DNA from: Escherichia coli
GTDB lineage: Bacteria; Pseudomonadota; Gammaproteobacteria; Enterobacterales; Enterobacteriaceae
Direction: 5' to 3' (one strand)
Assembly (NCBI RefSeq): GCF_050320075.1
Contig: NZ_CP190018.1
Length of the DNA stretch: 64,000 nucleotides
The notes beneath the pieces are model-generated. The model saw only the letters and a program-made list of their open reading frames with translations. It had not been told where the DNA came from and did not search any database. The translations under genes and the position numbers were made by a program. Shown here in pieces: positions 14,962 to 62,843 of this stretch (its first letter is position 1; each line of letters starts with the position of its first letter).

Positions 14962-16608
14962 TTATTCAATCTCTTCACAGACATCCTGAGTTAATCTCCG
15001 CATAATATCTTTCCTTAACAAAAACTTTTGTATTTTACCTGAGGCAGTGCGCGGTAGTTTTTCGATTACCACGATATGTTCAGGATATTTATATTTCGCG
15101 ACCCGTTTACGGCTAAAAAAAGCCACCACCTCTTCCAGCGATAATGAATGATGCGGTGCTTTCAGCACGACATAAGCGCATGAGCGTTCACCTAAACGTT
15201 CATCGGGCATCGCAACCACACAGGCATCGTGAATTTTAGGATGCTGCAATAAAATATCTTCTACTTCACGGCTGCTAATATTTTCGCCGCCGCGGACAAT
15301 AATATCTTTCTTGCGCCCGGTTATTTTTATATAGCCGGCCTCATCCATGCAGCAGAGATCGCCGCTGTAATACCAGCCTTCTTCATCCAGGGCACGGGCG
15401 GTTAATTCAGGTTCATCAAAATACCCCATAAACACATTGGGGCCACGCGAGGCTTCTTCACCTTCGCAACCTGGCGGTAAGGTCTTGCGTGCGTCATCGA
15501 CCACTTTAATCTCAACACCTGCGGCAGCGTAACCATCGGTGTGCATAAAGCGCGACAAAGGATCGTCGAGATTCACCACTGCGTGCGGCGAACTTTCTGT
15601 GGAACCATAAACACTTAATAATTTAATGCCGCGCTGCTGGCATTCACGCGCCACTTTTTTGGGGATTGTGGTCCCGCCGCAAAGAAAGAAGCGCAGCGCT
15701 GAAAGGTCAGCGGGTTGTTTCTCCAGTAAATTCAAAAGATCATAGACAAACGGCGTTGCGCCGAGCATACAGGTGCAACGCTGCTGCTCAAGCAGCGCGA
15801 GACACGCATCAGGAGTGAAAATATCTAACAACACGCTGCGAGCGCCAATTAAGAATGGTGCCGTTACGCCATGCAGAAAGCCCGTTGCATGACCAAGTGG
15901 CGCAGGCATCATAAAGACATCCTGCCAGGTCAGATTCAACCGCGCGCAATAAGCCCGCTCACTGGCGAGAATATTGTTATGCGTTAGCATCACGCCCTTT
16001 GGCAGACCCTCGGTTCCGGAGGTAAACAGCACCGCGGCTAATTCATCGCCGTGGACCGTTATCGCCGTGGTTAGAGGAGTATTGTCGGCGATAATCTGAC
16101 TTAATGAGAGAGCAGAGGTGGCGGGAGCCAGTTTGTCCACGCCGACAAGTTGTTGTAGTTGTGGAAGCTGATTTTGCAGCGGCAGGATTAAATCTACCGG
16201 ACGCGTTTGTTTAAACAACGTCGGAGCAAAGAACATTTTTGCCTGACACTTATTGAGCACCCATACTAGTTCTGCTTCCCGCCAGGAAGGCAACAGCGGT
16301 ACGGAAACCGCACCGATTTTCAGGCAGGCAAGATAGATAACGGTAAATTCACACCAGCCAGGCAGTTGAAATGCGATGCGATCGCCTGATTCAATACCCT
16401 TCGCTAACATCCAGTTTGCCAGACAGCTCGCGGCGTGATCGAGCGCGCTATAGGTGTACGATGCTCCATGATTATCGACCACGGCAATTTTGTCTGGCAT
16501 CGCACGAGCGGTCTGCTGCCAGTAATCGGCCAGCGAAGCATCGCCCCATAGCCCTTGCTGACGATACGCCGCACGACGTTGTTCGTTAAACGTTAATGTC
16601 ACTTTCAT
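14962..16608 (-). CDS. fadK: short-chain acyl-CoA synthetase (anaerobic)
   Basis: AMP-binding enzyme; start placed at MKVTLTF with GAGAG SD (548 aa); an in-frame upstream ATG at 16662 would give 566 aa. Confidence 0.8.
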   Translation of the reverse strand: MKVTLTFNEQRRAAYRQQGLWGDASLADYWQQTARAMPDKIAVVDNHGASYTYSALDHAASCLANWMLAKGIESGDRIAFQLPGWCEFTVIYLACLKIGAVSVPLLPSWREAELVWVLNKCQAKMFFAPTLFKQTRPVDLILPLQNQLPQLQQLVGVDKLAPATSALSLSQIIADNTPLTTAITVHGDELAAVLFTSGTEGLPKGVMLTHNNILASERAYCARLNLTWQDVFMMPAPLGHATGFLHGVTAPFLIGARSVLLDIFTPDACLALLEQQRCTCMLGATPFVYDLLNLLEKQPADLSALRFFLCGGTTIPKKVARECQQRGIKLLSVYGSTESSPHAVVNLDDPLSRFMHTDGYAAAGVEIKVVDDARKTLPPGCEGEEASRGPNVFMGYFDEPELTARALDEEGWYYSGDLCCMDEAGYIKITGRKKDIIVRGGENISSREVEDILLQHPKIHDACVVAMPDERLGERSCAYVVLKAPHHSLSLEEVVAFFSRKRVAKYKYPEHIVVIEKLPRTASGKIQKFLLRKDIMRRLTQDVCEEIE

Positions 16609-16664
16609 TTTGGACTCTCGAGACAGAACATCAGGCCCGAGATGCGGGCCTGTGGGATGCATGA

Positions 16665-16958
16665 TTAGCCGTAGCGAAAATCAATACCGAAGGTGCCTGC
16701 GGGATATTGCCACTGTTCGAGAATAGTGTTGCCGCACAGCACCCGACAGGTGCCGCACTCCAGACAACCGGCAGAATCAAAATGAATGTTGCCGGCGTCA
16801 TCCTGCTTATAAAGTCCGGCAGGGCAGGCTTTCATTAATTTACGGAATTCATTGATATCGGGATTTGCCGCCAAAATGATATGCGGGTGGCCCTCATCAA
16901 CATGGAATTTATTGACGCCTAATTTGATGTCGACGTTAACCGTAGCGTTCTGGCTCAT
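16665..16958 (-). CDS. ydiT: ferredoxin-like protein (FixX family)
   Basis: 97-aa ORF with Cys cluster; 4-bp overlap with ydiS. Confidence 0.88.
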   Translation of the reverse strand: MSQNATVNVDIKLGVNKFHVDEGHPHIILAANPDINEFRKLMKACPAGLYKQDDAGNIHFDSAGCLECGTCRVLCGNTILEQWQYPAGTFGIDFRYG

Positions 16959-18244
16959 AGCGCGGTTGCTCCCTTAATGCCATCTTTCAGCAAGTTGATC
17001 AGCCCAATTTTTTTCGCGTGTCCCATGATCATTTTGCGTACCGGCTGGTTTGGTTTGCCGTCAATGGTGAACATATCGTTCATGATGTCGGCGACAATGC
17101 GCGGATACTGACTAAACAGGCGCGGATTTTCCATCAGCGCCGGGATCTTGCGGAAATGCTGCATATCGCGCATAACACAACTTTGTTCCAGCTCACGTTT
17201 GTATTGCGCCAGACTGCTGGCGGAGAAATCCGCGCGTTCTTTGGCGGCAATCACTGTTGTGGCGGCAGCCTGAGCTGATGCAATGGCTAAATCCATGCCG
17301 CGAACTGTAAAACCCAAATTCAGGCAGAAGCCTGCGGCGTCACCAACGATCATCACGCCATCGTTAACCAGCTGCGGCACCATTGCCAGACCGCCTTCCG
17401 GCACCATATGCGCGGAATATTCAAGCAGTTTGCCGCCGCTAATCAGCGGGCGAATGGCGGGGTGTTGTTTAAAATCTTCCAGCATTTGCGGCACGCTTTT
17501 TTGCGCATGGGCGATATCACCCAATCCACAAACCAGCCCCAACGATATGGAATCCTTATTGGTATAGAGGAATCCGCCACCCATCAGGCCGTCAGAAGGG
17601 GAACCGGCAAACAGCCAGGCGGCACCTTCCTCGCCCGTAATATTAAAGCGATCGTTGATCTGTTCTGGTGTGAGGCCAATAACCTCTTTAACACCAACAG
17701 CGTAATGATGCGGATCGGAAGCGGAAACCATTCCCAGCGAGCGGCCAAGCATCGAGTTAACGCCATCAGCCAGAATCACCACATTCGCTTCAAGAACATC
17801 ATCCCCGGCCTGCACGCCAGTGACCTTGTTTCCTTCACGAACCAGCGCATCGACGCGTACGCCCGGGATAAACTGCGCGCCCGCCTGCTCGGCTTGTTCC
17901 ATCAACCACGGGTCCAGACGATTACGCAATACGGTATAAGACGCGTGTTGCGGAACATCTGGTTGCTCGCGGTGAAAGTCGAGGGTAACGGCGCTTTCTT
18001 CGGTTAAGAAGGAGATTTTCTCGCGTGTGACCTTGCGTTCTACCGGCGCTGATGCTGCAAAGCCTGGAATAATCGCTTCAAGTGTGTGGGCATAAAGACG
18101 CCCGCCGGTCATGTTTTTACATCCGGCACTGTCGCCGCGTTCTATCACCAGGACATCCAGCCCGGCTCGCGCCATGACCAGTGCGGCAACGCTACCGGCA
18201 ACGCCCGCACCGACCACAATGGCATCAAATTTGTCATCCGACAT
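16955..18244 (-). CDS. ydiS: FAD-dependent oxidoreductase (ETF-quinone oxidoreductase, FixC family)
   Basis: 429-aa ORF with N-terminal GAGVAG FAD fold. Confidence 0.88.
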   Translation of the reverse strand: MSDDKFDAIVVGAGVAGSVAALVMARAGLDVLVIERGDSAGCKNMTGGRLYAHTLEAIIPGFAASAPVERKVTREKISFLTEESAVTLDFHREQPDVPQHASYTVLRNRLDPWLMEQAEQAGAQFIPGVRVDALVREGNKVTGVQAGDDVLEANVVILADGVNSMLGRSLGMVSASDPHHYAVGVKEVIGLTPEQINDRFNITGEEGAAWLFAGSPSDGLMGGGFLYTNKDSISLGLVCGLGDIAHAQKSVPQMLEDFKQHPAIRPLISGGKLLEYSAHMVPEGGLAMVPQLVNDGVMIVGDAAGFCLNLGFTVRGMDLAIASAQAAATTVIAAKERADFSASSLAQYKRELEQSCVMRDMQHFRKIPALMENPRLFSQYPRIVADIMNDMFTIDGKPNQPVRKMIMGHAKKIGLINLLKDGIKGATAL

Positions 18245-18299
18245 GCGTTATGCTCCCTTCCCGCTGCGTTTACAGCGGGAGATGTGGTTGAAAGGGGAA

Positions 18300-19238
18300 T
18301 TAGCGGCTCAACTGGCTAATCAGGGCAGGGACGACTTTGTAGATATCGCCCACCAGACCGTAGTCGGCATAGTTGAAGATTGGCGCATTTTTATCTTTAT
18401 TGATGGCGACAATCACTTTTGCGCCGTTGCCGCCAACCATATGCTGGATCTGCCCGGAGATCCCCAGCGTCAGGTAGAGATCGGATTTCAGCAACACGCC
18501 GGAGACACCGATATAACGTTCACGCTCCATCCAGTTCTCGCCTTCGGCAATTGGACGTGAACAGCCGACTTCAGCATTCAGCACCGCCGCCAGTTCGTGG
18601 ACCATTTTCAGGTCATCCTGCGCTGCCAGACCACGACCGACGCCAACCACACGTTTTGCTTTGCTCAGGTCCACGCTGCTTGCCGCTTTCGCACGGCGTT
18701 CGCGACAGAGAATTTCATGACGCGGGGCAACATAAGGTACCGTTTCTGTCGGGCACTGATGAGCGGTATCACTGGTGCACGGTTCCTGAACACCGGGTGC
18801 AAGGGTAATGATCGCCAGCGGGCTGTTGATCTTTTCCTGTGCGAACGCTAACCCGCCATACATCCGGTGTTCGGCGCAAATGTGACCATCGACAATATCC
18901 ACCGCAGTGGCATCGTTCACCAGCGCCGCATTCAGTTGCACACTTAACCGTGCTGCCAGAGCTTTACCGCGTTTCGTCGCGGCCAGCAGCAACATAGAAG
19001 GATGTTTATCTTTCAGCAGGGCAGCAATGCTTTCGGCGTAATTTTCAGTACGTTGCAGCGCATCATTTTGCTCAAGAACATAAATACATTTTGGACCATA
19101 AGGCATAACTGCCTGCGCCTGGTCGGTATTTTGTACAATGGCATACACCTGTTGGCCCCATTGCTGCGCGCCGCCAAACAGTTCAGCATAACGTTCAGGA
19201 TTATCGCTAAAGACCCAGACGCTGTTTAATTGACTCAT
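18300..19238 (-). CDS. ydiR: electron transfer flavoprotein alpha subunit (FixB family)
   Basis: 312-aa ORF. Confidence 0.88.
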   Translation of the reverse strand: MSQLNSVWVFSDNPERYAELFGGAQQWGQQVYAIVQNTDQAQAVMPYGPKCIYVLEQNDALQRTENYAESIAALLKDKHPSMLLLAATKRGKALAARLSVQLNAALVNDATAVDIVDGHICAEHRMYGGLAFAQEKINSPLAIITLAPGVQEPCTSDTAHQCPTETVPYVAPRHEILCRERRAKAASSVDLSKAKRVVGVGRGLAAQDDLKMVHELAAVLNAEVGCSRPIAEGENWMERERYIGVSGVLLKSDLYLTLGISGQIQHMVGGNGAKVIVAINKDKNAPIFNYADYGLVGDIYKVVPALISQLSR

Positions 19239-19257
19239 CGTTTCTTCTCCGTAGGCT

Positions 19258-20022
19258 TCAGTTCAGGGCTTTCTTCAGATATTCCGCCAGCTCGGCAATG
19301 GCCTCCGGCGAATCGTTATCGAGAATGATGTGCTTACGTTCTGTTTGCGGCGGTACGCGAATGCCGGTCAGCTCAGCAAGTGGCGCGCTCTGGCTCCAGC
19401 CAATGTCACTTGCCTGCCACTGATTTATCGGTTTTTTACCCGCGCCGAGAATGGCTTTCATCGAAGGAATGCGTGGCATGTTAATATCGGAGGTGACGCA
19501 GAGCACGGCTGGAACAGAGAGCTCAATAACTTCAACATCATCTTCAAGCGTGCGTTCAATCACCAGTGTATTGCCCTGACGCTGAATAGCACTCACTGCA
19601 TTAATCACCGGAAGTTGCAGAATTTCTCCGACCAGCAAGCCAACCTGCTGGGCATAAAGGTCACCGCAACCTTCACCAAAGATCAGTAAATCGAAGCCGA
19701 TCTTTTCAACTGCTGCCGCCAGTGCTTTTGCGGTATCGAGAGGCAGTGCATGTTCAAGTTGCGCATCCTGCACCAAATACAGGCTATGCGGCCCGCGGGA
19801 TAGCACGTCTTTGCGTACTTTCGAGTTCTGCAACAATGAGCCGCCAACGGTCAGCGCGGCTATCTCATCGTCATCTGTTGCAATCTGGCTTGCAGCTTCA
19901 ATGGCATTGAGATCGAACTGGCTGATTTTGGCGTCGGCATTGTCGAAATTCAGGGTATATTCTGGAGTGACAACAATGTCCTGTTCTTCAGGCACCAGCT
20001 TAAAGCAGGTTATTATTTTCAT
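19258..20022 (-). CDS. ydiQ: electron transfer flavoprotein beta subunit (FixA family)
   Basis: start at ATG 20022 (MKIITCFKLVPEEQD, 254 aa); ORF track extends upstream. Confidence 0.85.
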   Translation of the reverse strand: MKIITCFKLVPEEQDIVVTPEYTLNFDNADAKISQFDLNAIEAASQIATDDDEIAALTVGGSLLQNSKVRKDVLSRGPHSLYLVQDAQLEHALPLDTAKALAAAVEKIGFDLLIFGEGCGDLYAQQVGLLVGEILQLPVINAVSAIQRQGNTLVIERTLEDDVEVIELSVPAVLCVTSDINMPRIPSMKAILGAGKKPINQWQASDIGWSQSAPLAELTGIRVPPQTERKHIILDNDSPEAIAELAEYLKKALN

Positions 20023-20337
20023 GATTTCTCCTGTGAGTCGCATACGGAACCATCTCCGATGGAAGATAAAAATGGCCTGAAAATAGTGTGCGATAGCGGT
20101 GCGGGGTTTTCGACGGAGCAAGCTGTTTTCCTTGCCAACAATCTTGCAAAAAAAATGCGATCGCTAAAACAAAAGTGCAATTTGCGGCAATATAGTTATT
20201 CCATGACCGTACAATCTTGCATTCAGTGTAAATAATCTTGTTTAGCTCTCGCTAAACGCGGTTGTATAACCGCAATACACGCCGTATTTTATCCGGCATA
20301 TATTGTTTTTGCTTGCTCATGGAATAGGGAGGTTGTC

Positions 20338-21249
20338 ATGTATCAACGCTGTTTTGATAACGCCAGCGAAACGCTGTTTGTCGCCGGTAAAACGCCACGG
20401 CTTTCACGTTTTGCATTTAGCGATGATCCAAAATGGGAGTCCGGACATCACGTTCATGACAATGAAACCGAGTTGATTTACGTCAAGAAAGGGGTAGCAA
20501 GGTTTACCATCGATTCTTCGTTATATGTCGCGCACGCCGATGACATTGTGGTGATAGAACGTGGCAGGCTGCATGCGGTGGCCTCTGACGTTAACGATCC
20601 GGCAACGACGTGTACCTGTGCGCTGTACGGCTTTCAGTTTCAGGGGGCTGAGGAAAATCAGCTACTGCAACCGCATTCTTGCCCGGTAATTGCCGCAGGG
20701 CAGGGAAAAGAAGTTATTAAAACCTTATTTAATGAGCTAAGTGTGATTTTGCCGCAAAGTAAAAATAGCCAAACATCTTCGTTATGGGACGCATTTGCCT
20801 ATACGTTAGCAATTCTTTACTATGAAAACTTTAAAAATGCTTATCGTTCGGAGCAGGGATATATTAAAAAAGATGTTCTGATAAAAGATATTCTTTTCTA
20901 TCTGAATAATAACTATCGCGAAAAAATCACTTTAGAGCAGTTATCGAAAAAGTTTCGTGCCAGCGTCAGTTATATTTGCCATGAATTTACCAAAGAGTAT
21001 CGTATTTCCCCTATTAACTATGTTATTCAACGGCGTATGACGGAAGCGAAATGGTCACTCACTAATACTGAATTATCACAGGCAGAGATCTCCTGGCGTG
21101 TGGGTTATGAAAATGTCGATCACTTTGCCAAACTGTTTTTGCGCCATGTCGGCTGTTCGCCCAGCGATTACCGCAGGCAATTTAAAAACTGTTTTGCGGA
21201 ACAAGAAATCTTATCTGAATTTCCTCAACCGGTAAGTCTTGCCGGATAA
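20338..21249 (+). CDS. ydiP: AraC-family transcriptional regulator
   Basis: 303-aa ORF with C-terminal AraC HTH; divergent from ydiQ. Confidence 0.85.
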   Translation: MYQRCFDNASETLFVAGKTPRLSRFAFSDDPKWESGHHVHDNETELIYVKKGVARFTIDSSLYVAHADDIVVIERGRLHAVASDVNDPATTCTCALYGFQFQGAEENQLLQPHSCPVIAAGQGKEVIKTLFNELSVILPQSKNSQTSSLWDAFAYTLAILYYENFKNAYRSEQGYIKKDVLIKDILFYLNNNYREKITLEQLSKKFRASVSYICHEFTKEYRISPINYVIQRRMTEAKWSLTNTELSQAEISWRVGYENVDHFAKLFLRHVGCSPSDYRRQFKNCFAEQEILSEFPQPVSLAG

Positions 21250-21252
21250 ATC

Positions 21253-21286
21253 TGGCGGCGCAGTTTGTTAAGAAGCTGCGCCGCCT
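21253..21286. terminator. hairpin between convergent ydiP and ydiO
   Basis: GGCGGCGCAG-loop-CTGCGCCGCC perfect 10-bp stem. Confidence 0.5.
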
Positions 21287-21291
21287 GCAGA

Positions 21292-22443
21292 TTATTTGTT
21301 CTGATAATCTTTCAGGATCTGCCGACCCGCTACGTAAATCATAATTTCGTCTGTACCGCCGCCGATACGTTCACAACGGACATCACGCCAGAAGCGAGAG
21401 ACGCGCGCCTCATCGGTATAGCCCAGACCGCCCATGATTTGAATCGCATCATCAATAACTTCCATTGCGGTACGTGCGCAGTACAGTTTTGCCAGCGCCG
21501 CGCTGGTGCGCAGTGACTGATGCTGATCGGCTTGCCATGCCACTTTCAGCACCATGTTGCGCATGTTGTCGATCTTAATCGCCATCAGCGCCAGTTTTTC
21601 CTGGATCATCTGGTTATGACCAATGGGCTTACCAAAAGCGATACGTTGGTTGGCATAGCGGGCGGCATCTTCAAAGGCACACTCGGCAAAGCCGGTGCTG
21701 CGCGCGGCGTTGATCAGGCGCTCCATCTCAAAGTTGTACATCACATTGAGGAAACCCATTCCTTCTTCGCCCACCATGTCGCTCTCTTCAACTTCCACGT
21801 TGTCGAGATAGACTTCGCAGGTGCTGAGCATATGCCAGCCGATTTTATGCAGCGGGTTAATCTTAATGCCGGGCTTACTGGAGTCGACCCACCACAGGGT
21901 GAAGGCTTTTTTGGGATCTTTCGGTTCTGGATCGCGCGCCAGCACCAGCATATACGGGTACTCTTTCGCGCCGGTAATAAAGGTTTTCTGGCCGTTGATG
22001 TAAACCTTGCCGTTTTTACGCGTGTAAGTGGTGGTGGCGCTGTTGTTATCTGAGCCTGCGCCTGGTTCCGTCAATGCCAGGGCATAGGCGGGATCACCCG
22101 TTTCCAGGGTGCTCTCTGCCGTTTTACGTAGCTGCTCTGCAGAACCGAAACGGCGCATACTGTGAATACATTGACCGTTGGTGATCAAAAATGCCGGGGC
22201 ACCGCATTTTGACACTTCCATCAGCGCCAGCATTTGGGTGACGTAATCCGCAGGGATACCACCAAATTCTTCCGGCACGCCAAGCATGGAAATACCGTTA
22301 TCCGCCAGTGCCCGCATAAATTCACGCGGGTATGTCCCGTTTTGATCGCAGGTGCGGAAATACTCTTCCGGAAAGTTAGTCGTAATCAGTTCGCGAATAC
22401 TGGCCAGCAGCAGTTCTTGTTCTTCAGTTAAAGAAAAATCCAT
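21292..22443 (-). CDS. ydiO: acyl-CoA dehydrogenase
   Basis: start at ATG 22443 (MDFSLTEEQELL, 383 aa). Confidence 0.88.
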   Translation of the reverse strand: MDFSLTEEQELLLASIRELITTNFPEEYFRTCDQNGTYPREFMRALADNGISMLGVPEEFGGIPADYVTQMLALMEVSKCGAPAFLITNGQCIHSMRRFGSAEQLRKTAESTLETGDPAYALALTEPGAGSDNNSATTTYTRKNGKVYINGQKTFITGAKEYPYMLVLARDPEPKDPKKAFTLWWVDSSKPGIKINPLHKIGWHMLSTCEVYLDNVEVEESDMVGEEGMGFLNVMYNFEMERLINAARSTGFAECAFEDAARYANQRIAFGKPIGHNQMIQEKLALMAIKIDNMRNMVLKVAWQADQHQSLRTSAALAKLYCARTAMEVIDDAIQIMGGLGYTDEARVSRFWRDVRCERIGGGTDEIMIYVAGRQILKDYQNK

Positions 22444-22456
22444 CGTGATACTCCTG

Positions 22457-24052
22457 TTAATGAGCCGCTTCAGGCAGGACAAAACCCATCGCCGCATCGA
22501 TAAATAATCTTTCGTCCATCAGTTTGAGTTCTGGCGAAATCACTGGGGTGAAATCCATTTTGTCGAGAATATCTTTTTGTAAATCGACGCCAGGGGCGAT
22601 TTCGATTAAATGCAGGCCGTCTTCTTTCAGCGTGAATACTGCGCGCTCAGTGATATAACGAACATCCAGCCCTCGCTCGAGAGCGATTTTTCCGCTGAAA
22701 GTAATTTCCGGTAGTTCCCGAATAAATTTCTTCACCCGTCCTTCCTGGACGATATTTAATTTGCCGTCGGTAATTTCTGTTTTTAAACTGCCCGCAGTTA
22801 ATGTGCCGCAGAAAACGATTTTCTTCGAAGTGGCACTGATATCAATAAATCCACCGGTGCCCATGATTTTACCATTGAATTTATGCACGCCGACGTTACC
22901 GTGCTGGTCGACTTCAGCAAAACTCAAATAACAAACATCCAGACCGCCACCGTGATAAAAATCAAACTGGGACGTCATATCCAGAATGGCACGGGTATTC
23001 ACGTTCGCGCCAAAGGCGATCCCCTGTGAAGTAATTCCGCCAATCGGACCTGTTTCTACCGTCAGAATAAAGTCATCAGCACAACCTTCTTCTCGGGCGA
23101 CCAGGCCAATGCCGTCAGCAATACCGACGCCGACATTCCCCACCGCGCCTTTACGCATTTCGAATAATGCGCGCCGTGCAACTAATTTACGTTGGTTTAG
23201 GGGCAGGCTAAGTTTGGTGCTGTCATCAAGGGTGAAGTCACCAGAAATAAAGCGGTTAACCGGCGCACCGCCATACAGTTGGGTTTGATCCGGATCGACC
23301 ACCACAATATCCACCAGATAACCCGGAATACGGACAGATTTAGGATGCAGCGTGGCTTTCTTAACCATTTTCTGCACCTGCATCATCACAATACCGCCGT
23401 TATTGTGCACCGCCTGGGCAATAACCAATGCGTCGAGATACATCACCTCATCTTCAAAAGTGGCGTAGCCTTCGCTGTCGCAGGTGGTAGCGCGAATGAA
23501 GGCGATATCTGGCGCAATCGCTTTGTAATAGAGATATTCTTGGTTATCAAACTCGACCAGTTTAATCAGGTCTTCTTTAGTGACTTCATTCAGTTTGCCG
23601 CCTTGCTGGCGTGGATCAACAAATGTCCCGATGCCAATATCACTAATAATACCAGGCTGGTGGGCTGCGGCGGCGCGTAAGGTTTGTGTAAGTACACCTT
23701 GTGGATAGTTATAAGCAATAATTTTATTTTGTTCTGCGAGATCAGAAATACGCGGCGATTGTCCCCAGTGACCGCATAATGCCCATTTCACCAGACCTTC
23801 TTGTGCCAGCGGACTAATACCACGGTCGGCGCGATCGCCAAGCCCTGTTGGACTAATAATCGATAAATTACGTGGTGTTTGAGTCTGTTTATATTTATCA
23901 GCAAGAGCAGTAATTAACGTGGTGGCTTCCAGAATACCGCCGCCAGCGCCTAACACACAAAGTGTTGCTTCGTCGGGAATATAATTCACCGCTTCCTGTG
24001 CCGACAGGACCGGCACTCGTCCATTAATACGAGGTGGTTTTACAGGTTTCAT
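22457..24052 (-). CDS. ydiF: acetate/short-chain acyl-CoA transferase (fused alpha/beta)
   Basis: 531-aa ORF, CoA-transferase family I. Confidence 0.88.
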   Translation of the reverse strand: MKPVKPPRINGRVPVLSAQEAVNYIPDEATLCVLGAGGGILEATTLITALADKYKQTQTPRNLSIISPTGLGDRADRGISPLAQEGLVKWALCGHWGQSPRISDLAEQNKIIAYNYPQGVLTQTLRAAAAHQPGIISDIGIGTFVDPRQQGGKLNEVTKEDLIKLVEFDNQEYLYYKAIAPDIAFIRATTCDSEGYATFEDEVMYLDALVIAQAVHNNGGIVMMQVQKMVKKATLHPKSVRIPGYLVDIVVVDPDQTQLYGGAPVNRFISGDFTLDDSTKLSLPLNQRKLVARRALFEMRKGAVGNVGVGIADGIGLVAREEGCADDFILTVETGPIGGITSQGIAFGANVNTRAILDMTSQFDFYHGGGLDVCYLSFAEVDQHGNVGVHKFNGKIMGTGGFIDISATSKKIVFCGTLTAGSLKTEITDGKLNIVQEGRVKKFIRELPEITFSGKIALERGLDVRYITERAVFTLKEDGLHLIEIAPGVDLQKDILDKMDFTPVISPELKLMDERLFIDAAMGFVLPEAAH

Positions 24053-24196
24053 TGTTAATTCCTGATTCAGATGTGATTTTCCCTACGCCAGATGGAGAAT
24101 TAGCGCACAGAGACTCACGAAATATTTTTATTAAATACGGTTAAATATATTTTTTTAGTTCGGCGGGGGAGGATGTTCCCGCCGAAATATTATTGC

Positions 24197-24955
24197 TTAT
24201 GCCTGATGTAAAATAGTTAATACTGTGCGCAAATCATTTACCGAGATTTGCCCTGGTGCAGAGGCCTTTTTTACCGCACCAAAAGTTGCCGCCGAGCCAA
24301 ATACTTCACCAGCCAGACGAGAAATTACGCCAGTTTTTGCCATTGACATCGTGATGATTGGACGATCGGCATACTGCTCCTGCATCTCCAGGGTCGCGGC
24401 AAGCAACGTCAGCACATCGCTGGTACTTTGCGGCATCAGCGCAATCTTAGGAATATCGGCGTCGAAGGACTGCATTTTGCGCAGACGGGCAATGATTTCT
24501 TCGGCTTCCGGCGTTTTATGGAAGTCATGGTTGGACATGACAACTTTCACATCATGCGCGTGGGCGTAGGCGACGGTTTCTTTAACCTGATCATCGCCGG
24601 TAAATAACTCCAGATCGATCATATCAACCAGGCCGCTGTCGATGGCTGCACGATTGAGTGCAATATAAGCCTCGGTGGAAATCGCCTGCTCGCCGCCTTC
24701 TTTGGCACTGCGGAAGGTAAACAGCAGCGGTTTTTCTGGCATGGTTTCACGGAGAATTTTTGCCGCCGCCATGACAGAATCCACATTGGAGAGGTCGGCA
24801 TAGTGGTCAACACGCCATTCCAGAATATCAAAGTCCGCTTCACGATAGGCGAGAGCTTCAGATTTCACGCTGGCGATATCTTTCGCCATCAGCGAGACGA
24901 TGATTTTAGGTGCGCCCGTACCAATGACGAGATCTTTTACAGTTACGGTTTTCAT
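24197..24955 (-). CDS. aroD: 3-dehydroquinate dehydratase (type I)
   Basis: 252-aa ORF. Confidence 0.95.
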
Positions 24956-24985: not shown

Positions 24986-25852
24986 TCAGGCACCGAACCC
25001 CATGACCTGTTTAACATATTCCAGAGGGAAATCTTTGCCAGTCCATAACGTGAACTGTTCAGCCCCTTGCCACAACAACATGCCGTATCCATCAATCGTT
25101 TTGCAACCAGCTTGTTGCGCCTGCTGCAATAACTTCGTCATATGCGGGTTATACACGCATTCAGTGACCAGAAGTCCCGGATGTAACAGACTGATATCAT
25201 TAACCAATGATTCATTCTCAAGGGGTTTCATACCCACTTTTGTGCCATTGGTTAAAATGTCGGCGGAAGCCAGGGCTTCAGCAAAGGCTTGCTGATCGGC
25301 GAGATCGGTAACCGTGACGACACAATCGGTGTTTTCGTTAACCCGCTGCGCGAAGGCGAGGGCTTTATCGAAGAACTCATCCCGACGGTTAAAGAGTTTA
25401 ATTTCTTTTAAACCTTCAATTGCCCCCTGCGCGCCAATCGCCGTTGAGGCACCTCCGGCCCCTAACAGCACCATCGTTTTGCCTTTGATATCAAAACCGC
25501 TCTCTTTAATGGCGCGAATATGGCCCGTGCCGTCGGTGTTATAGCCACGCAGATAGCCATCATCATTAACGATGGTGTTGATGGCACCCACCAGTTTGGC
25601 CGCTGGCGTTAATTCATCAACATATTCACACGCCAGTTGTTTGTTCGGCATTGATACACCAGTTCCGCGCATTTTGAGGGCTTTTAATCCTTCAATTGCT
25701 CCGGGAAAACTATCGTTATCCACTTCAAAAGCCATATAGGTAAATGGCAATCCCGCTTTTTCTAAGGCTTTATTCTGCATTTCAGGCGATAAACTGTGGC
25801 GGATGGGATATGCCATCAGCCCAATCAATTCGTATTTTGCGGTAACATCCAT
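24986..25852 (-). CDS. ydiB: quinate/shikimate dehydrogenase
   Basis: 288-aa ORF, AroE paralogue. Confidence 0.9.
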
Positions 25853-25863
25853 AATTAACTCCT

Positions 25864-27129
25864 TTAACCTCTATGCTTAATTGTGTTTAACCGGGTGCTA
25901 AATTTACGCTCGCCAAACCGCACATCATTTTCAGGAATAATGAAAACGCGGTAATAGCGGATAAAGACAATAATTGCGGTAATCAGGGCCAGCAGCGCGA
26001 AAGTAAAATCGAGAGCAATGATATATTGCAGGCCGATGTTCGACAGATAACCGGTAATCAGCGGAATAACAAAATTAGCCAGTCCACCCATCATCATATA
26101 TATACTGGTGACTTTGGCTTTGCTTTTTGGGAAAAACTCTGACATGACCGAAACGCCGAGCTGTAAAATGCCGCCAGCTGCTGAGAAACCGATAACAAAG
26201 GCTCCGGCATTACACACCAATGGAGAAGGGTACAGGTAGATAATGGCAGCTGTTATTGTTGCCAGTGCAGAGTTAAATACATTAGCCCAGATGGGCCGGA
26301 CCATTTTTTTCAGCAGTGCGGCAAAAATAAAGACACAGACCAACGAGCCCATACTGTAATAAGAGATGGTTTTTAATGCCTCAGCTTCTGACATACCAGC
26401 AAAAGCCATCGCATATTTGGGCATCCACACCACAATCACATAAAAGGTCGAGAATGCGGCTACACCGAACAGTACTGATGAAACACCTTCCAGCCAGACT
26501 AACGGTTTGCTGTTCATTTGCGGTAATTCATTAGCTACGCTGGCGTCCACCAACTGGCTGGGGAATTTGCTTTTCAACAGCATCAGTGTGATCAGTACAA
26601 ACAGAATACCCGGAATAATCAGCCCATAGCCGTACCAGATGTTATTGAGCAACATATAGCTCACCAGCATTGGGTAGAACATTTGCCCGAATGACACCAT
26701 CGCTTTAACCAGTATGACCGCCGAACCAGAGGCTTTCGGAAAGCATTCCATGAGCGCGGGGTAGCCACCCGTATCCAGCGCTGAGTTAGCGATACCTACG
26801 CACACTGCCAGACAGTAGGCGAGAGTTAAATTCGGGCAAGCGGGAATACCAAAGAAGAATAGCAGATACATTATTACTGCCATTAATATCACCGCCCGAC
26901 GACCAAACTTATCGGAGATCACACCGAAGAATAAAATACTGATCAATCGCCCCAAACCGATACCGGAAATTAAATAGGCAATGCCCGCGTTGTCAGTGGA
27001 AAACTTTTCTGCCAGAGATGACATATTTTGGGCAAGCGTAATAACACTAATGCCGTGCAGGAAATAGCTGAAGTAAATACAAAGAACAGCCAGGATAAAT
27101 GGCGTGCTGAAAGCCTTATTTTGAGACAT
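25864..27129 (-). CDS. ydiN: MFS transporter
   Basis: polytopic membrane ORF; ATG at 27129 (MSQNKAF); GTG two codons upstream also possible. Confidence 0.85.
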
Positions 27130-27355
27130 TTTCACAGCTCCTTGCTGAAAGATAATTTCGTTACCGTACGTATTGTTCTCCGACGGTTCACATAATTACT
27201 ATACTGAAGATGATTTTCCCTGGGTACATGGCATAAAGTTTATGTTTCCAGGAATATTGCATGTCATAGTTTGTTTTTTATCGCGATTTTCGTTAGTTGG
27301 CGCAGAAAGAGTTATTTATCCGTAAGATCTTGCATGACCTGAAAAGAATATTGCA

Positions 27356-29025: not shown

Positions 29026-29163
29026 CGTGTAATGGCTGCATGAAATAAACAATAAAATATAAATAACATTATCAGCCTGCTGACGGCTTGAAGAGAGTCA
29101 CAGTATCTTGTGCAACATTATTGGAAAGCGTGAGGGGCGAGGTAGCGAAGCGGAAAAATGTTA

Positions 29164-57079: not shown

Positions 57080-58228
57080 TTAGCGAGCCACTCGAAGGCC
57101 GTTTTCAACACCGCGTGAGAACACGACCTGCCAGAGCTGAATATCACGGGCGCGGAAAGCACCTGCACAGGCATTCAGATAATAGGTAAACATCCGTTTA
57201 AAGCGTTCACTGTAGTTATCCGCAATTTCTGGCCATGCGGCGAGGAATCGTTCATACCACGCCATCAACGTAGTATCGTAATCAGCACCGAAGTTATGCC
57301 AGTCTTCCATCACAAAGTGGGGTTCGCTGGACTGAGCAATCTGGCGTACAGAGGGCAGGCAACCGTTCGGAAAAATATATTTATTAATCCAGGGATCAAC
57401 ATTCAGATCGGTTTTTTTCGAACCGATAGTATGGAGCAGGAATATGCCTTCCGGTTTCAAATTACGATCCACCACCGCAAAATAAGTATCGTAATTTTTC
57501 GGTCCGACGTGCTCGAACATCCCCACAGAAACAATACGATCAAACTGGTCGTTCAGGTCACGATAATCTTGCAGCAAAATGGTGACATCCAGGCCTTCGC
57601 AGCGTTCCTGAGCCATTTTTTGCTGTTCGGCAGAAATGGTGACGCCAACCACGCTTACGTCATAATTAGATGCCATGTAGTGCGCCAGTCCGCCCCAGCC
57701 GCAGCCAATATCCAGTACGCGCATCCCTGGTTTTAACTGCAATTTTTCACAAATCATTTTGAGCTTCGCCTGCTGGGCAGATTCCAGATTATCGGCATCT
57801 TTCCAGTAAGCGCAGGAATATTGCATGAAGGGATCAAGCATGCGGCTGAACAAGTCATTACCCAAATCGTAATGCTCTTTGCCGACTATCCAGGCACGTT
57901 TTTTACTCTGCAGATTGAAGAGACGAGCGCCGGCAATACGCAGCGTGTCTTTGAAATGATGGGGGAGTTGGTTCTCGAGACCTGCGCGTAAGACTTTGCT
58001 AAAAAACATATCCAGTCGGTCACATTCCCACCAGCCATCCATATAACTTTCGCCTAACCCCAACGATCCTTCCTGCAGAACGCGTTTAAAAAAATCGGGG
58101 TTTTTCACATGAATATCCGCCGGGGCAGAACCGTTAATGGCTATACCGGCACGGCTAAGTAATTCGTTGGCGATACGGTACCAGTTGTCATCCGGTACAC
58201 TGACTTCTTCTATACACGATGAACTCAT
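57080..58228 (-). CDS. cfa: cyclopropane fatty acyl phospholipid synthase
   Basis: 382-aa SAM-dependent methyltransferase ORF. Confidence 0.93.
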   Translation of the reverse strand: MSSSCIEEVSVPDDNWYRIANELLSRAGIAINGSAPADIHVKNPDFFKRVLQEGSLGLGESYMDGWWECDRLDMFFSKVLRAGLENQLPHHFKDTLRIAGARLFNLQSKKRAWIVGKEHYDLGNDLFSRMLDPFMQYSCAYWKDADNLESAQQAKLKMICEKLQLKPGMRVLDIGCGWGGLAHYMASNYDVSVVGVTISAEQQKMAQERCEGLDVTILLQDYRDLNDQFDRIVSVGMFEHVGPKNYDTYFAVVDRNLKPEGIFLLHTIGSKKTDLNVDPWINKYIFPNGCLPSVRQIAQSSEPHFVMEDWHNFGADYDTTLMAWYERFLAAWPEIADNYSERFKRMFTYYLNACAGAFRARDIQLWQVVFSRGVENGLRVAR

Positions 58229-62130: not shown

Positions 62131-62406
62131 GTGGCTTCTGTTTCTATCAGCTGTCCCTCCTGTTCAGCTACTGACGGGGTGGTGCGTAACGGCAAAAGCA
62201 CCGCCGGACATCAGCGCTATCTCTGCTCTCACTGCCGTAAAACATGGCAACTGCAGTTCACTTACACCGCTTCTCAACCCGGTACGCACCAGAAAATCAT
62301 TGATATGGCCATGAATGGCGTTGGATGCCGGGCAACTGCCCGCATTATGGGCGTTGGCCTCAACACGATTTTCCGCCATTTAAAAAACTCAGGCCGCAGT
62401 CGGTAA
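62131..62406 (+). CDS. insA: IS1 InsA (transposition repressor / N-terminal part of transposase)
   Basis: 91-aa [46 protein letters not shown]... Confidence 0.95.
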
Positions 62407-62828
62407 CCTCGCGCATACAGCCGGGCAGTGACGTCATCGTCTGCGCGGAAATGGACGAACAGTGGGGATACGTCGGGGCTAAATCGCGCCAGCGCTGGCT
62501 GTTTTACGCGTATGACAGGCTCCGGAAGACGGTTGTTGCGCACGTATTCGGTGAACGCACTATGGCGACGCTGGGGCGTCTTATGAGCCTGCTGTCACCC
62601 TTTGACGTGGTGATATGGATGACGGATGGCTGGCCGCTGTATGAATCCCGCCTGAAGGGAAAGCTGCACGTAATCAGCAAGCGATATACGCAGCGAATTG
62701 AGCGGCATAACCTGAATCTGAGGCAGCACCTGGCACGGCTGGGACGGAAGTCGCTGTCGTTCTCAAAATCGGTGGAGCTGCATGACAAAGTCATCGGGCA
62801 TTATCTGAACATAAAACACTATCAATAA
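62325..62828 (+). CDS. insB: IS1 InsB frame (expressed as InsAB' transposase by -1 frameshift at the A6C motif)
   Basis: 167-aa ORF in -1 frame relative to insA, with AAAAAAC slippery run near 62383. Confidence 0.9.
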
Positions 62829-62843
62829 GTTGGAGTCATTACC

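Follow-up and report, generated by a model that had tools for sequence, protein, structure and literature searches.

What a set of acyl-coenzyme A (CoA) and electron-transfer flavoprotein (ETF) genes does for Escherichia coli, and on which substrate, is the question raised by fadK-ydiTSRQ, ydiP and ydiO-ydiF, which occupy positions 14962–24052 of a 64,000-nucleotide stretch of E. coli DNA (assembly GCF_050320075.1, contig NZ_CP190018.1), referred to here as the window. An earlier note on this DNA, made from the sequence alone, described these eight genes as a self-contained anaerobic module for fatty-acid oxidation or enoyl-CoA reduction. Comparison with other bacteria shows that the eight genes are not a unit alone and that, with aroD, ydiB and ydiN, they form an 11-gene block found across the Enterobacterales and in Sutterella. 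The acyl-CoA/ETF genes are probably functionally coupled to the quinate/shikimate enzymes encoded in this block, and a full model built by analogy to the carnitine (cai/fix) system, in which an enoyl-CoA derived from quinate or shikimate would be reduced in a CoA-dependent manner, has about an even chance of being correct. More tentatively, and with somewhat lower probability, the ydi block could allow Proteobacteria associated with the gut and with plants to respire quinate or shikimate in a CoA-dependent manner, with the regulator YdiP sensing a hydroaromatic acid. A self-contained fatty-acid module is probably the wrong frame for these genes.

In itself, the fadK-ydiTSRQ/ydiP/ydiO-ydiF region is an ordinary, long-annotated and already known E. 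coli core locus. Over the 11.5 kb around positions 14962–24052, E. coli YZLc1-3 and further strains match at 100% identity, and this stretch of the window is 98% identical to K-12. Relative to K-12 all eight genes are intact and colinear, with no gaps or premature stops and with 96.5–99.2% nucleotide identity per gene. Of 5426 complete E. coli genomes, all but one (5425) contain the region, and 5350 of them cover at least 80% of its length. The open reading frames (ORFs) lie at exactly the limits given in the earlier note, and RefSeq, Pfam and NCBIfam return the families that it had named. Its minus-strand layout around a divergent AraC-type ydiP likewise agrees with Pfam and with the RefSeq annotation, in which (window position = L001 position + 10999) the order is ppsA on the plus strand, fadK-ydiT-ydiS-ydiR-ydiQ on the minus strand, ydiP on the plus strand and ydiO-ydiF-aroD-ydiB-ydiN-ydiM on the minus strand. 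In E. coli E69 (L046) the 5′ part of ydiF lies near ppsA, which looks like a deletion of ydiO through fadK.

The extent of the functional unit emerges from a survey of YdiO relatives with one genome per species, in which the E. coli proteins were mapped onto 45 loci. A single order, ydiN-ydiB-aroD-ydiF-ydiO, ydiP on the opposite strand and ydiQRST-fadK, occurs in every YdiO locus on a long enough contig, i.e., in about 40 species, and the genera with the block are Escherichia, Citrobacter, Kosakonia, Intestinirhabdus, Yersinia, Serratia, Dickeya, Brenneria, Prodigiosinella and Symbiopectobacterium. Only the closest genera retain the ppsA flank; because the gene order is kept while this flank varies, the block appears to move as a whole, including aroD, ydiB and ydiN. 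In the window the three additional genes lie on the minus strand: ydiN (25864–27129), annotated as a major facilitator superfamily (MFS) transporter, heads the ydiN-ydiB-aroD(-ydiF-ydiO) string; ydiB (24986–25852) encodes an NAD(P)-dependent quinate/shikimate dehydrogenase (NF009390, 670 bits against a cut-off of 349); and aroD (24197–24955) encodes the type I 3-dehydroquinate dehydratase (TIGR01093, 292 bits against a cut-off of 139). Genes for a hydratase, a 3-hydroxyacyl-CoA dehydrogenase or a thiolase are absent from the block and from the YdiO-clade loci whose neighbours were inspected. Both the additional members and these absences speak against the description of the cluster as self-contained. 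The proteins of the block differ in their conservation (L002–L044 compared with the window): YdiO is conserved at 91–93% between E. coli and Yersinia, Serratia or Dickeya and at 80–89% in Sutterella and the loci L048 and L049, and YdiF at 87–90%, while YdiP (65–69%), YdiR (68–71%) and FadK (70–77%) are far less conserved.

The association does not depend on one arrangement, since the partners stay together in at least four different gene orders. In Sutterella wadsworthensis (Betaproteobacteria; cluster at L054, 627–13371) the genes ydiO-ydiF-aroD-ydiB-ydiN are separated by a 1.36-kb gap from a divergent ydiQ-R-S-T-fadK operon, in which the FadK ortholog is 59% identical to that of E. coli. The spacer between ydiN and ydiQ of this species contains no ORF of at least 90 amino acids save one that overlaps ydiQ on the opposite strand. 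A YdiP ortholog (51% identity) is encoded about 6 kb beyond fadK, past inserted flavin-reductase genes; the insertion between the fadK and ydiP orthologs (L054, 13462–19058) comprises FAD_binding_2 reductase genes and a two-component system. Two metagenomic loci are more compact: L049 is one tight operon with the order MFS-CoA_trans-ACAD-ETFb-ETFa-Shikimate_dh-DHquinase_I-FixC-FixX, where ACAD stands for acyl-CoA dehydrogenase, and L058 has the order MFS-CoA_trans-ACAD-ETFb-ETFa-DHquinase_I-FixC-FixX-ligase. In both, the dehydroquinase gene lies between the ETF and FixC-like genes, with junction spacers of 2–140 nt (11–21 nt at four of six junctions). L058 has the dehydroquinase without the dehydrogenase, and the reverse is found in L048, where Shikimate_dh-CoA_trans-ACAD is accompanied by a second Shikimate_dh gene a few genes downstream. 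A transporter, a CoA-transferase, a priming ligase, an ACAD-type reductase and an ETF thus occur together in E. coli, S. wadsworthensis and L058, and in L049 without the ligase. Two fused public gene calls, P0056 (Shikimate_dh_N and CoA_trans, 651 aa) and P0128 (ACAD and CoA_trans, 496 aa), are probably read-through calls of adjacent genes and as such would be further cases of adjacency.

Relatives outside this clade help to delimit what is specific to it. The next YdiO clade (62–68% identity), represented by E. albertii (L060) and Desulfovibrio desulfuricans (L061), has a similar ACAD/ETF/transferase design and no shikimate genes. This third paralogous module encodes two ACADs and an ETF alongside an MFS transporter and a CoA-transferase of family III, and in Desulfovibrio also FixCX and a ligase. 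Because such paralog clades share the design without the shikimate genes, the accessory genes seem to mark the substrate. A different association is seen for relatives of YdiF with 61–65% identity in Firmicutes and other anaerobes/Synergistota (L050–L053), which adjoin a MaoC dehydratase gene and mostly also an ApbA-like reductase gene. A type II dehydroquinase and an uncharacterized protein of about 130 amino acids are encoded in two of the four loci inspected (L050 and L051), L051 and L052 add TRAP transporters, short-chain dehydrogenases/reductases (SDRs) and AP_endonuc_2 proteins, and Hominifimenecus has four carboxylesterase genes just upstream. These clusters resemble the ydi block in their CoA-transferase and, in part, in their dehydroquinase, but have neither ACAD nor ETF; their MaoC and ApbA-like enzymes point to a ring that is hydrated and oxidised, as in degradation, and not reduced, and the clusters may represent an anaerobic quinate/chlorogenate degradation route.

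The protein at the centre of the block is the putative reductase YdiO (21292–22443, minus strand; 383 aa), a CaiA-like acyl-CoA dehydrogenase/enoyl-CoA reductase (NF008997, 786 bits) with all three ACAD domains (PF02771, PF02770 and PF00441) above their cut-offs and with 48% identity to CaiA. It scores 452 bits against the CaiA equivalog NF002885, under the cut-off of 540, and by its sequence it is a paralog and not an ortholog of CaiA. The Y-E-G-T motif of the short- and medium-chain ACADs (SCAD, MCAD and Bcd) is not present in YdiO, which reads 358-ERIGGGT, while CaiA has VSGGS at this place. YdiO (E241) and CaiA have in common the Glu of an E-R-L/F motif, which we take to be the base position of the isovaleryl-CoA and long-chain acyl-CoA dehydrogenase (IVD/LCAD) type, used by dehydrogenases of bulky or branched substrates, and which in this way gives weaker support to the proposal made below.

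Electron transfer to or from YdiO would run through YdiQRST, whose gene order (ETF beta, ETF alpha, FixC-like, FixX-like) is the one that the FixABCX type demands. YdiQ (19258–20022, minus strand; 254 aa) is a FixA-like ETF beta subunit (NF008998, 490 bits; 54% identical to FixA) that exceeds the FixA cut-off (320 versus 219), and YdiR (18300–19238, minus strand) is a FixB-like ETF alpha subunit (Pfam ETF and ETF_alpha; NF008884, 691 bits; 44% identical to FixB) that reaches 321 bits against the FixB model, for which the cut-off is 549. YdiS (16955–18244, minus strand) is a flavoprotein of the FixC/ETF-quinone-oxidoreductase (ETF-QO) type (NF007450, 973 bits; 62% identical to FixC), which is above the FixC subfamily cut-off (644 versus 610) and in which the Pfam ETFQO_UQ-bd domain is detected. 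YdiT (16665–16958, minus strand; 97 aa) is a FixX-like ferredoxin, 63% identical to FixX, with the cysteine group Cys65-x2-Cys68-x2-Cys71-x3-Cys75 and with 144 bits against the NCBIfam FixX model, under the cut-off of 166. These identities to CaiA and FixABCX bear out the part of the earlier note that considered an enoyl-CoA reductase module possible.

Two enzymes of the block handle CoA. YdiF (22457–24052, minus strand; 531 aa) is a fused alpha/beta CoA-transferase of family I (PF01144, CoA_trans) with a full-length match of 1187 bits to the PDB structures 2AHU, 2AHV and 2AHW; Glu333, which, going by these entries, is presumably the catalytic residue that forms the glutamyl-CoA thioester, is present. 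FadK, also named YdiD (14962–16608, minus strand; 548 aa), is an AMP-forming acyl-CoA ligase (NF004758, 1088 bits against a cut-off of 736) in which the adenylate-forming motifs A3, A5, A8 and A10 are all found. It is 32% identical to EntE, 29% to FadD and 29% to CaiC, its best PDB matches are aryl-acid adenylating enzymes, and its next NCBIfam match after its own model is a cyclohexanecarboxylate-CoA ligase (420 bits). FadK seems in this respect slightly closer to EntE-type aryl-acid/alicyclic-acid ligases than to FadD, which lends weaker support to a ring-acid substrate.

From these parts a pathway can be proposed. Between them, YdiB and AroD convert quinate, 3-dehydroquinate, 3-dehydroshikimate and shikimate into one another. 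Both shikimate and dehydroshikimate have the structure of a cyclohex-1-ene-1-carboxylate, which makes their CoA esters enoyl-CoAs. In the proposed mechanism YdiN would take up a hydroaromatic acid (dietary quinate or shikimate), which YdiB and AroD would convert to a ring acid with the C1=C2 double bond conjugated to the carboxyl group. FadK would prime the cycle by forming the first CoA thioester at the expense of ATP, and YdiF would subsequently move CoA from the product to fresh substrate. YdiO would reduce the double bond of the enoyl-CoA (shikimoyl-CoA or 3-dehydroshikimoyl-CoA) with electrons that would flow from the quinol pool or NADH through the FixCX-like YdiS/YdiT pair to the ETF (YdiQR) and on to YdiO, and the dihydro product would be released. 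YdiP would sense the hydroaromatic acid and activate the ydiQ and ydiN promoters through TGCAAKAT boxes.

The model for this proposal is carnitine respiration by caiTABCDE/fixABCX of E. coli, whose parts list the ydi block matches in a transporter (CaiT/YdiN), a priming AMP-ligase (CaiC/FadK, 29%), a CoA-recycling transferase (CaiB/YdiF), an ACAD-type reductase (CaiA/YdiO), a FixABCX chain (44–63%), an activator (CaiF/YdiP) and a substrate-specific dehydratase (CaiD/AroD). It is on the grounds of this match, with ydiB and aroD as the substrate-specific genes, that YdiO is proposed to reduce a shikimate-type enoyl-CoA. Also the divergence of transporter and fix-like operons in Sutterella mirrors that of cai and fix. 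The two systems differ in that YdiF belongs to family I and CaiB to family III, that YdiN is an MFS and CaiT a BCCT transporter, that AroD acts on the free acid and not on a CoA ester, and that YdiO, YdiR and YdiT remain under the CaiA, FixB and FixX equivalog cut-offs. CarABCDE of Acetobacterium woodii, the caffeate respiration system, similarly combines a CoA-transferase, a priming ligase, an ACAD-type reductase and an ETF to act on an alpha,beta-unsaturated plant acid, and in both the cai and car respirations the pair of CoA-transferase and priming ligase serves product-to-substrate CoA recycling. With CarC, which we take to be chain C of PDB 6FAH, YdiO shares a sequence relationship at family level only (158 bits). 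Unlike the Ydi system with its quinone-linked FixC/FixX pair, Car has no such pair and its ETF bifurcates electrons from NADH to ferredoxin. The FixABCX systems of nitrogen fixers share the etfB-etfA-fixC-fixX order, and YdiQ and YdiS pass the corresponding FixA and FixC cut-offs, but ydi has no nif context and its partner is an ACAD. Lastly, the FAD_binding_2 shikimate reductase of Eggerthella lenta has the net reaction that is proposed here for the ydi block (shikimate + 2[H] to hydroshikimate) and is likewise a respiratory sink in a gut bacterium, but it belongs to an unrelated family, takes the free acid as its substrate and involves neither CoA nor ETF, and is an analogue rather than a homologue.

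A second line of evidence for the joining of ydiQRST-fadK with the ydiN string is that both have the same conserved element in their control regions. The divergent ydiQ/ydiP control region (20023–20337) contains two TGCAAGAT boxes on the minus strand at 20221–20214 and 20148–20141, which are located at −199 and −126 from the ydiQ ATG, 73 bp apart. The ydiN control region in the ydiM-ydiN spacer (27130–27355) contains three TGCAAKAT boxes on the minus strand at 27355–27348, 27334–27327 and 27261–27254 (−226, −205 and −132 from the ATG, with spacings of 21 and 73 bp). Orientation and the 73-bp distal-to-proximal spacing are the same in both promoters. The whole window has 16 TGCAAKAT octamers where 6.6 ± 2.5 are expected, and five of them are in these two promoters. 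Each of the 14 representative species has two or more boxes between ydiP and ydiQ, with TTTGCAAGATnGTTGGyA as the proximal consensus; the ydiN boxes are kept in Escherichia, Citrobacter, Kosakonia and Intestinirhabdus, and the 21-bp box pair is also found in Yersinia (L021, 4817 and 4838), S. wadsworthensis and L049. YdiP (20338–21249, plus strand), an AraC/XylS regulator with an N-terminal cupin ligand domain and a C-terminal double helix-turn-helix (Pfam HTH_18, PF12833; Cupin_2, PF07883; AraC_binding, PF02311), has orthologs that adjoin the cluster or lie in its vicinity in the enteric loci, L049 (45% identity) and S. wadsworthensis. No boxes were found in L058, which has no YdiP ortholog in the locus, or in the paralog clusters. 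Because boxes were seen only where a YdiP ortholog is present, YdiP is most likely the candidate binder of the TGCAAKAT boxes.

The spacing of the ydiQ-upstream boxes varies among genera: it is 73 bp in Escherichia, C. amalonaticus, Kosakonia and Intestinirhabdus, about 250 bp in C. werkmanii, and 327–337 bp in Yersinia, Brenneria, Dickeya, Serratia, Prodigiosinella and Symbiopectobacterium (about 260 bp extra; L021–L025, L038 and L044). A search of the window with a matrix of the box also gave a 17.5-bit match between ydiL and rprA (29107–29128, plus strand, opposite in orientation to ydiL), which could be a further YdiP target or chance, and matches at 57577 and 57829 that lie inside cfa and are taken as chance. 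A reading of the ydiQ-upstream TTGGCA...TTGC as a sigma-54 promoter was rejected because the distance from GG to GC is 17 nt and not 12.

Independent support for the quinate/shikimate proposal comes from S. wadsworthensis, which carries the whole ydi set and is reported to gain growth from reduction of the enoate group in shikimate (Little et al., bioRxiv 10.1101/2022.12.26.521950). In shikimate-producing E. coli, ydiB, aroD and ydiN are reported to be up (PMC4585142), and ydiQRST are differentially expressed in another shikimate producer (PMC4015609); both studies compared growth phases of one strain, and because these comparisons lack a non-producer control, the transcriptomes are weak evidence. 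No published link of these genes to quinate or shikimate was found in the literature searched, and the supplement of Little et al. mentions neither shikimate nor an acyl-CoA dehydrogenase nor an ETF. Several points weigh against the proposal. Anaerobic fatty-acid use has reportedly been assigned to fadK, ydiO and ydiQRST (Campbell 2003; Morgan-Kiss 2004; Gulevich 2016), and YdiO serves as a crotonyl-CoA reductase in engineered reverse beta-oxidation. E. lenta reduces shikimate by its unrelated flavin reductase (bioRxiv 10.1101/2022.12.26.521950); S. wadsworthensis has many flavin reductases, two of which are encoded beside the ydi-like cluster, so that its shikimate phenotype may stem from the flavin reductases and not from the cluster. 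An orphan YdiO-like gene with 74% identity has no partner genes (L059), and in E. coli aroD doubles as the housekeeping dehydroquinase gene. Before ydiF, in the aroD-ydiF spacer, there is no TGCAAKAT box, and no matrix match reached 12 bits. Reportedly, ydiP has been tied to cold-shock adaptation in a 2022 genetic-interaction study. Finally, the evidence for anaerobic control appears thin. A chromatin immunoprecipitation (ChIP-chip) peak of FNR with a predicted site has been published at ydiP/ydiQ (PMC1802558), and the FNR-like site TTGACGTAAATCAA under this peak (20473–20486, minus strand) lies within ydiP codons (ELIYVK). Other species do not conserve it, E. whittamii included, so that it was rejected as a sign of conserved anaerobic control.

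The best supported of the other explanations, unlikely as we consider it, retains the published assignment to fatty acids. FadK would be the anaerobic counterpart of FadD, and YdiO (re-oxidised via YdiQRST to the quinone pool) that of FadE, so that both would act with FadIJ in short- and medium-chain beta-oxidation, YdiF would activate short acids by CoA transfer and the adjacency of aroD-ydiB-ydiN would be meaningless. According to a 2022 review, a mutant without both fadD and fadK cannot grow on fatty acids, and the activity of FadK is highest with C6–C8 acids (PMC9329746). YdiO has been proposed as an alternative FadE (PMC3896788), and the Salmonella ydi genes decay along with fadHIJK in extraintestinal serovars (PMC3967523). 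NCBIfam moreover names FadK a medium-chain fatty-acid–CoA ligase, an equivalog (NF004758) that it passes, but this name mirrors only the substrates tried so far. Published genetics of this kind is what the fatty-acid claim of the earlier note can rely on. The same 2022 review, however, finds experimental evidence for YdiQR lacking and calls their function unknown, doubts an anaerobic role of FadK in fatty-acid use, reports that transcriptomes do not show anaerobic induction of fadK, and sees no evidence of FadR or CRP control of fadK (PMC9329746; FadR sites were not searched in this analysis), so that the fatty-acid part of the earlier claim is weak and its statement that the substrates are not established holds. 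Comparison with FadD/FadE/FadBA/FadIJ points in the same direction: the reported C6–C8 activity of FadK and the ACAD nature of YdiO are shared features, but FadK is only 29% identical to FadD, YdiO has 383 residues against 814 in FadE and scores 19 bits on the NCBIfam FadE model, and the conserved partners of the ydi block are shikimate-pathway genes, which every inspected YdiO-clade locus has; no hydratase, 3-hydroxyacyl-CoA dehydrogenase or thiolase gene occurs in any of these loci. The nearest characterised relative of YdiO is the reductase CaiA, YdiO is without the Y-E-G-T motif of short- and medium-chain dehydrogenases, and the fatty-acid activities could be side activities.

An oxidative direction of the same chemistry is still less probable. 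A saturated alicyclic acid (of the dihydroshikimate or cyclohexanecarboxylate type) would in this case be oxidised as a CoA ester to the enoyl-CoA, with electrons flowing from YdiO through the ETF and YdiS/T to the quinone pool, and YdiB and AroD would feed the product to the shikimate pathway for aromatic amino-acid salvage. To our knowledge E. coli has no protocatechuate pathway, and the biosynthetic shikimate pathway, with which aroD is common, is for this reason the only onward route. An ETF with an ETF-QO normally works oxidatively, and YdiS has the ETF-QO ubiquinone-binding domain; the next NCBIfam match of FadK is the cyclohexanecarboxylate-CoA ligase, and hydroshikimate is made by other gut bacteria (bioRxiv 10.1101/2022.12.26.521950). 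Yet CaiA/FixABCX, the nearest homologous system that has been characterised, works in the reductive direction, S. wadsworthensis uses shikimate as an electron acceptor and does not form it as a product, and a CoA-transferase paired with a priming ligase is typical of reductive enoate respirations. That the substrate is another, unsaturated or branched carboxylic acid, with the aroD-ydiB-ydiN link due to shared regulation or history, is very improbable: two neighbouring paralog modules clearly serve other substrates, ydiF has no box before it and YdiF is said to accept several short acyl-CoAs in vitro (the 2AHU work), but dehydroquinase and shikimate dehydrogenase genes lie inside the ETF/FixCX operon in L049 and L058, the association outlasts at least four rearrangements and a transfer into Betaproteobacteria, and distant YdiF relatives are linked to the non-homologous type II dehydroquinase.

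CoA-dependent reduction of a quinate/shikimate-derived acid provides a concrete function hypothesis for ydiF, ydiO, ydiP, ydiQRST and ydiN and for the true substrate of fadK, together with a defined candidate operator for YdiP. If true, this pathway would be the one by which common gut Proteobacteria dispose of electrons on quinate, chlorogenate and shikimate from the diet; it would parallel the flavin shikimate reductase of E. lenta without being homologous to it, and would account for shikimate respiration in Sutterella. Some eight E. coli genes that are poorly characterised would thereby acquire a physiological role. The pathway would also bear on the by-products of shikimate-producing strains and would change the view of YdiO and YdiQRST in engineered reverse beta-oxidation.

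At the level of individual genes, the earlier note had stated that several genes are coupled by overlapping or nearly overlapping stop and start codons. This is overstated, since the sole overlap is that of ydiS and ydiT (4 nt, ATGA), and the spacers elsewhere measure 13 nt (ydiF-ydiO), 19 nt (ydiQ-ydiR), 55 nt (ydiR-ydiS) and 56 nt (ydiT-fadK). The last of these depends on the start of fadK: with the 566-aa longest-ORF start only 2 nt separate the two genes. K-12 is annotated with this upstream ATG (at 16662 here), and PGAP and the NCBIfam model favour the 548-aa start, which is preceded by a GAGAG Shine-Dalgarno sequence. The 566-aa start was rejected, as the upstream ATG is ACG in E. whittamii and NF004758 begins at residue 19 of the long ORF. 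Longer versions of ydiQ (287 aa, from a TTG) and ydiO (401 aa) were also rejected, the family models beginning at residues 34 and 19, respectively.

Two spacers contain potential RNA structures. In the ydiT-fadK spacer (16609–16664; fold of −17.7 kcal/mol) a GC-rich stem-loop is formed at 16632–16652 on the minus strand, and 10 of 12 genera have a hairpin here although their sequences are unrelated. As an attenuator within the operon or as an element of RNA stability, it may set fadK apart from ydiQRST. This hairpin would occlude the upstream ATG of the 566-aa FadK annotation of K-12. The 144-nt aroD-ydiF spacer contains a stem-loop directly 3′ of the aroD stop (24159–24186; 11-pair stem), and a hairpin follows aroD in all 14 species, again with differing sequences; what comes next on the transcribed strand is a run of A and not of T. 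It may separate the expression of aroD from that of ydiFO. In the same spacer a palindrome, GAATATT-N8-AATATTC, occurs in E. whittamii, C. amalonaticus and Kosakonia (L004, L013 and L015) and is degenerate in the window (about 24110–24135); it may be an operator for a dimeric regulator of ydiFO. A generic scan showed no enrichment over shuffled sequences for promoter-like (9 versus 12.3 expected) or terminator-like (17 versus 11.7) elements and was not used.

Two further observations concern this strain. The intragenic antisense sigma-54 site reported in fadK of K-12 (GCGGCACGGAAACTGCA) reads GCGGTACGGAAACCGCA here (16296–16312), with two mismatches and with the GG and GC cores intact. Outside the block, an insertion sequence of the IS1B family lies between purR and cydH at about 62132–62829 of the window.

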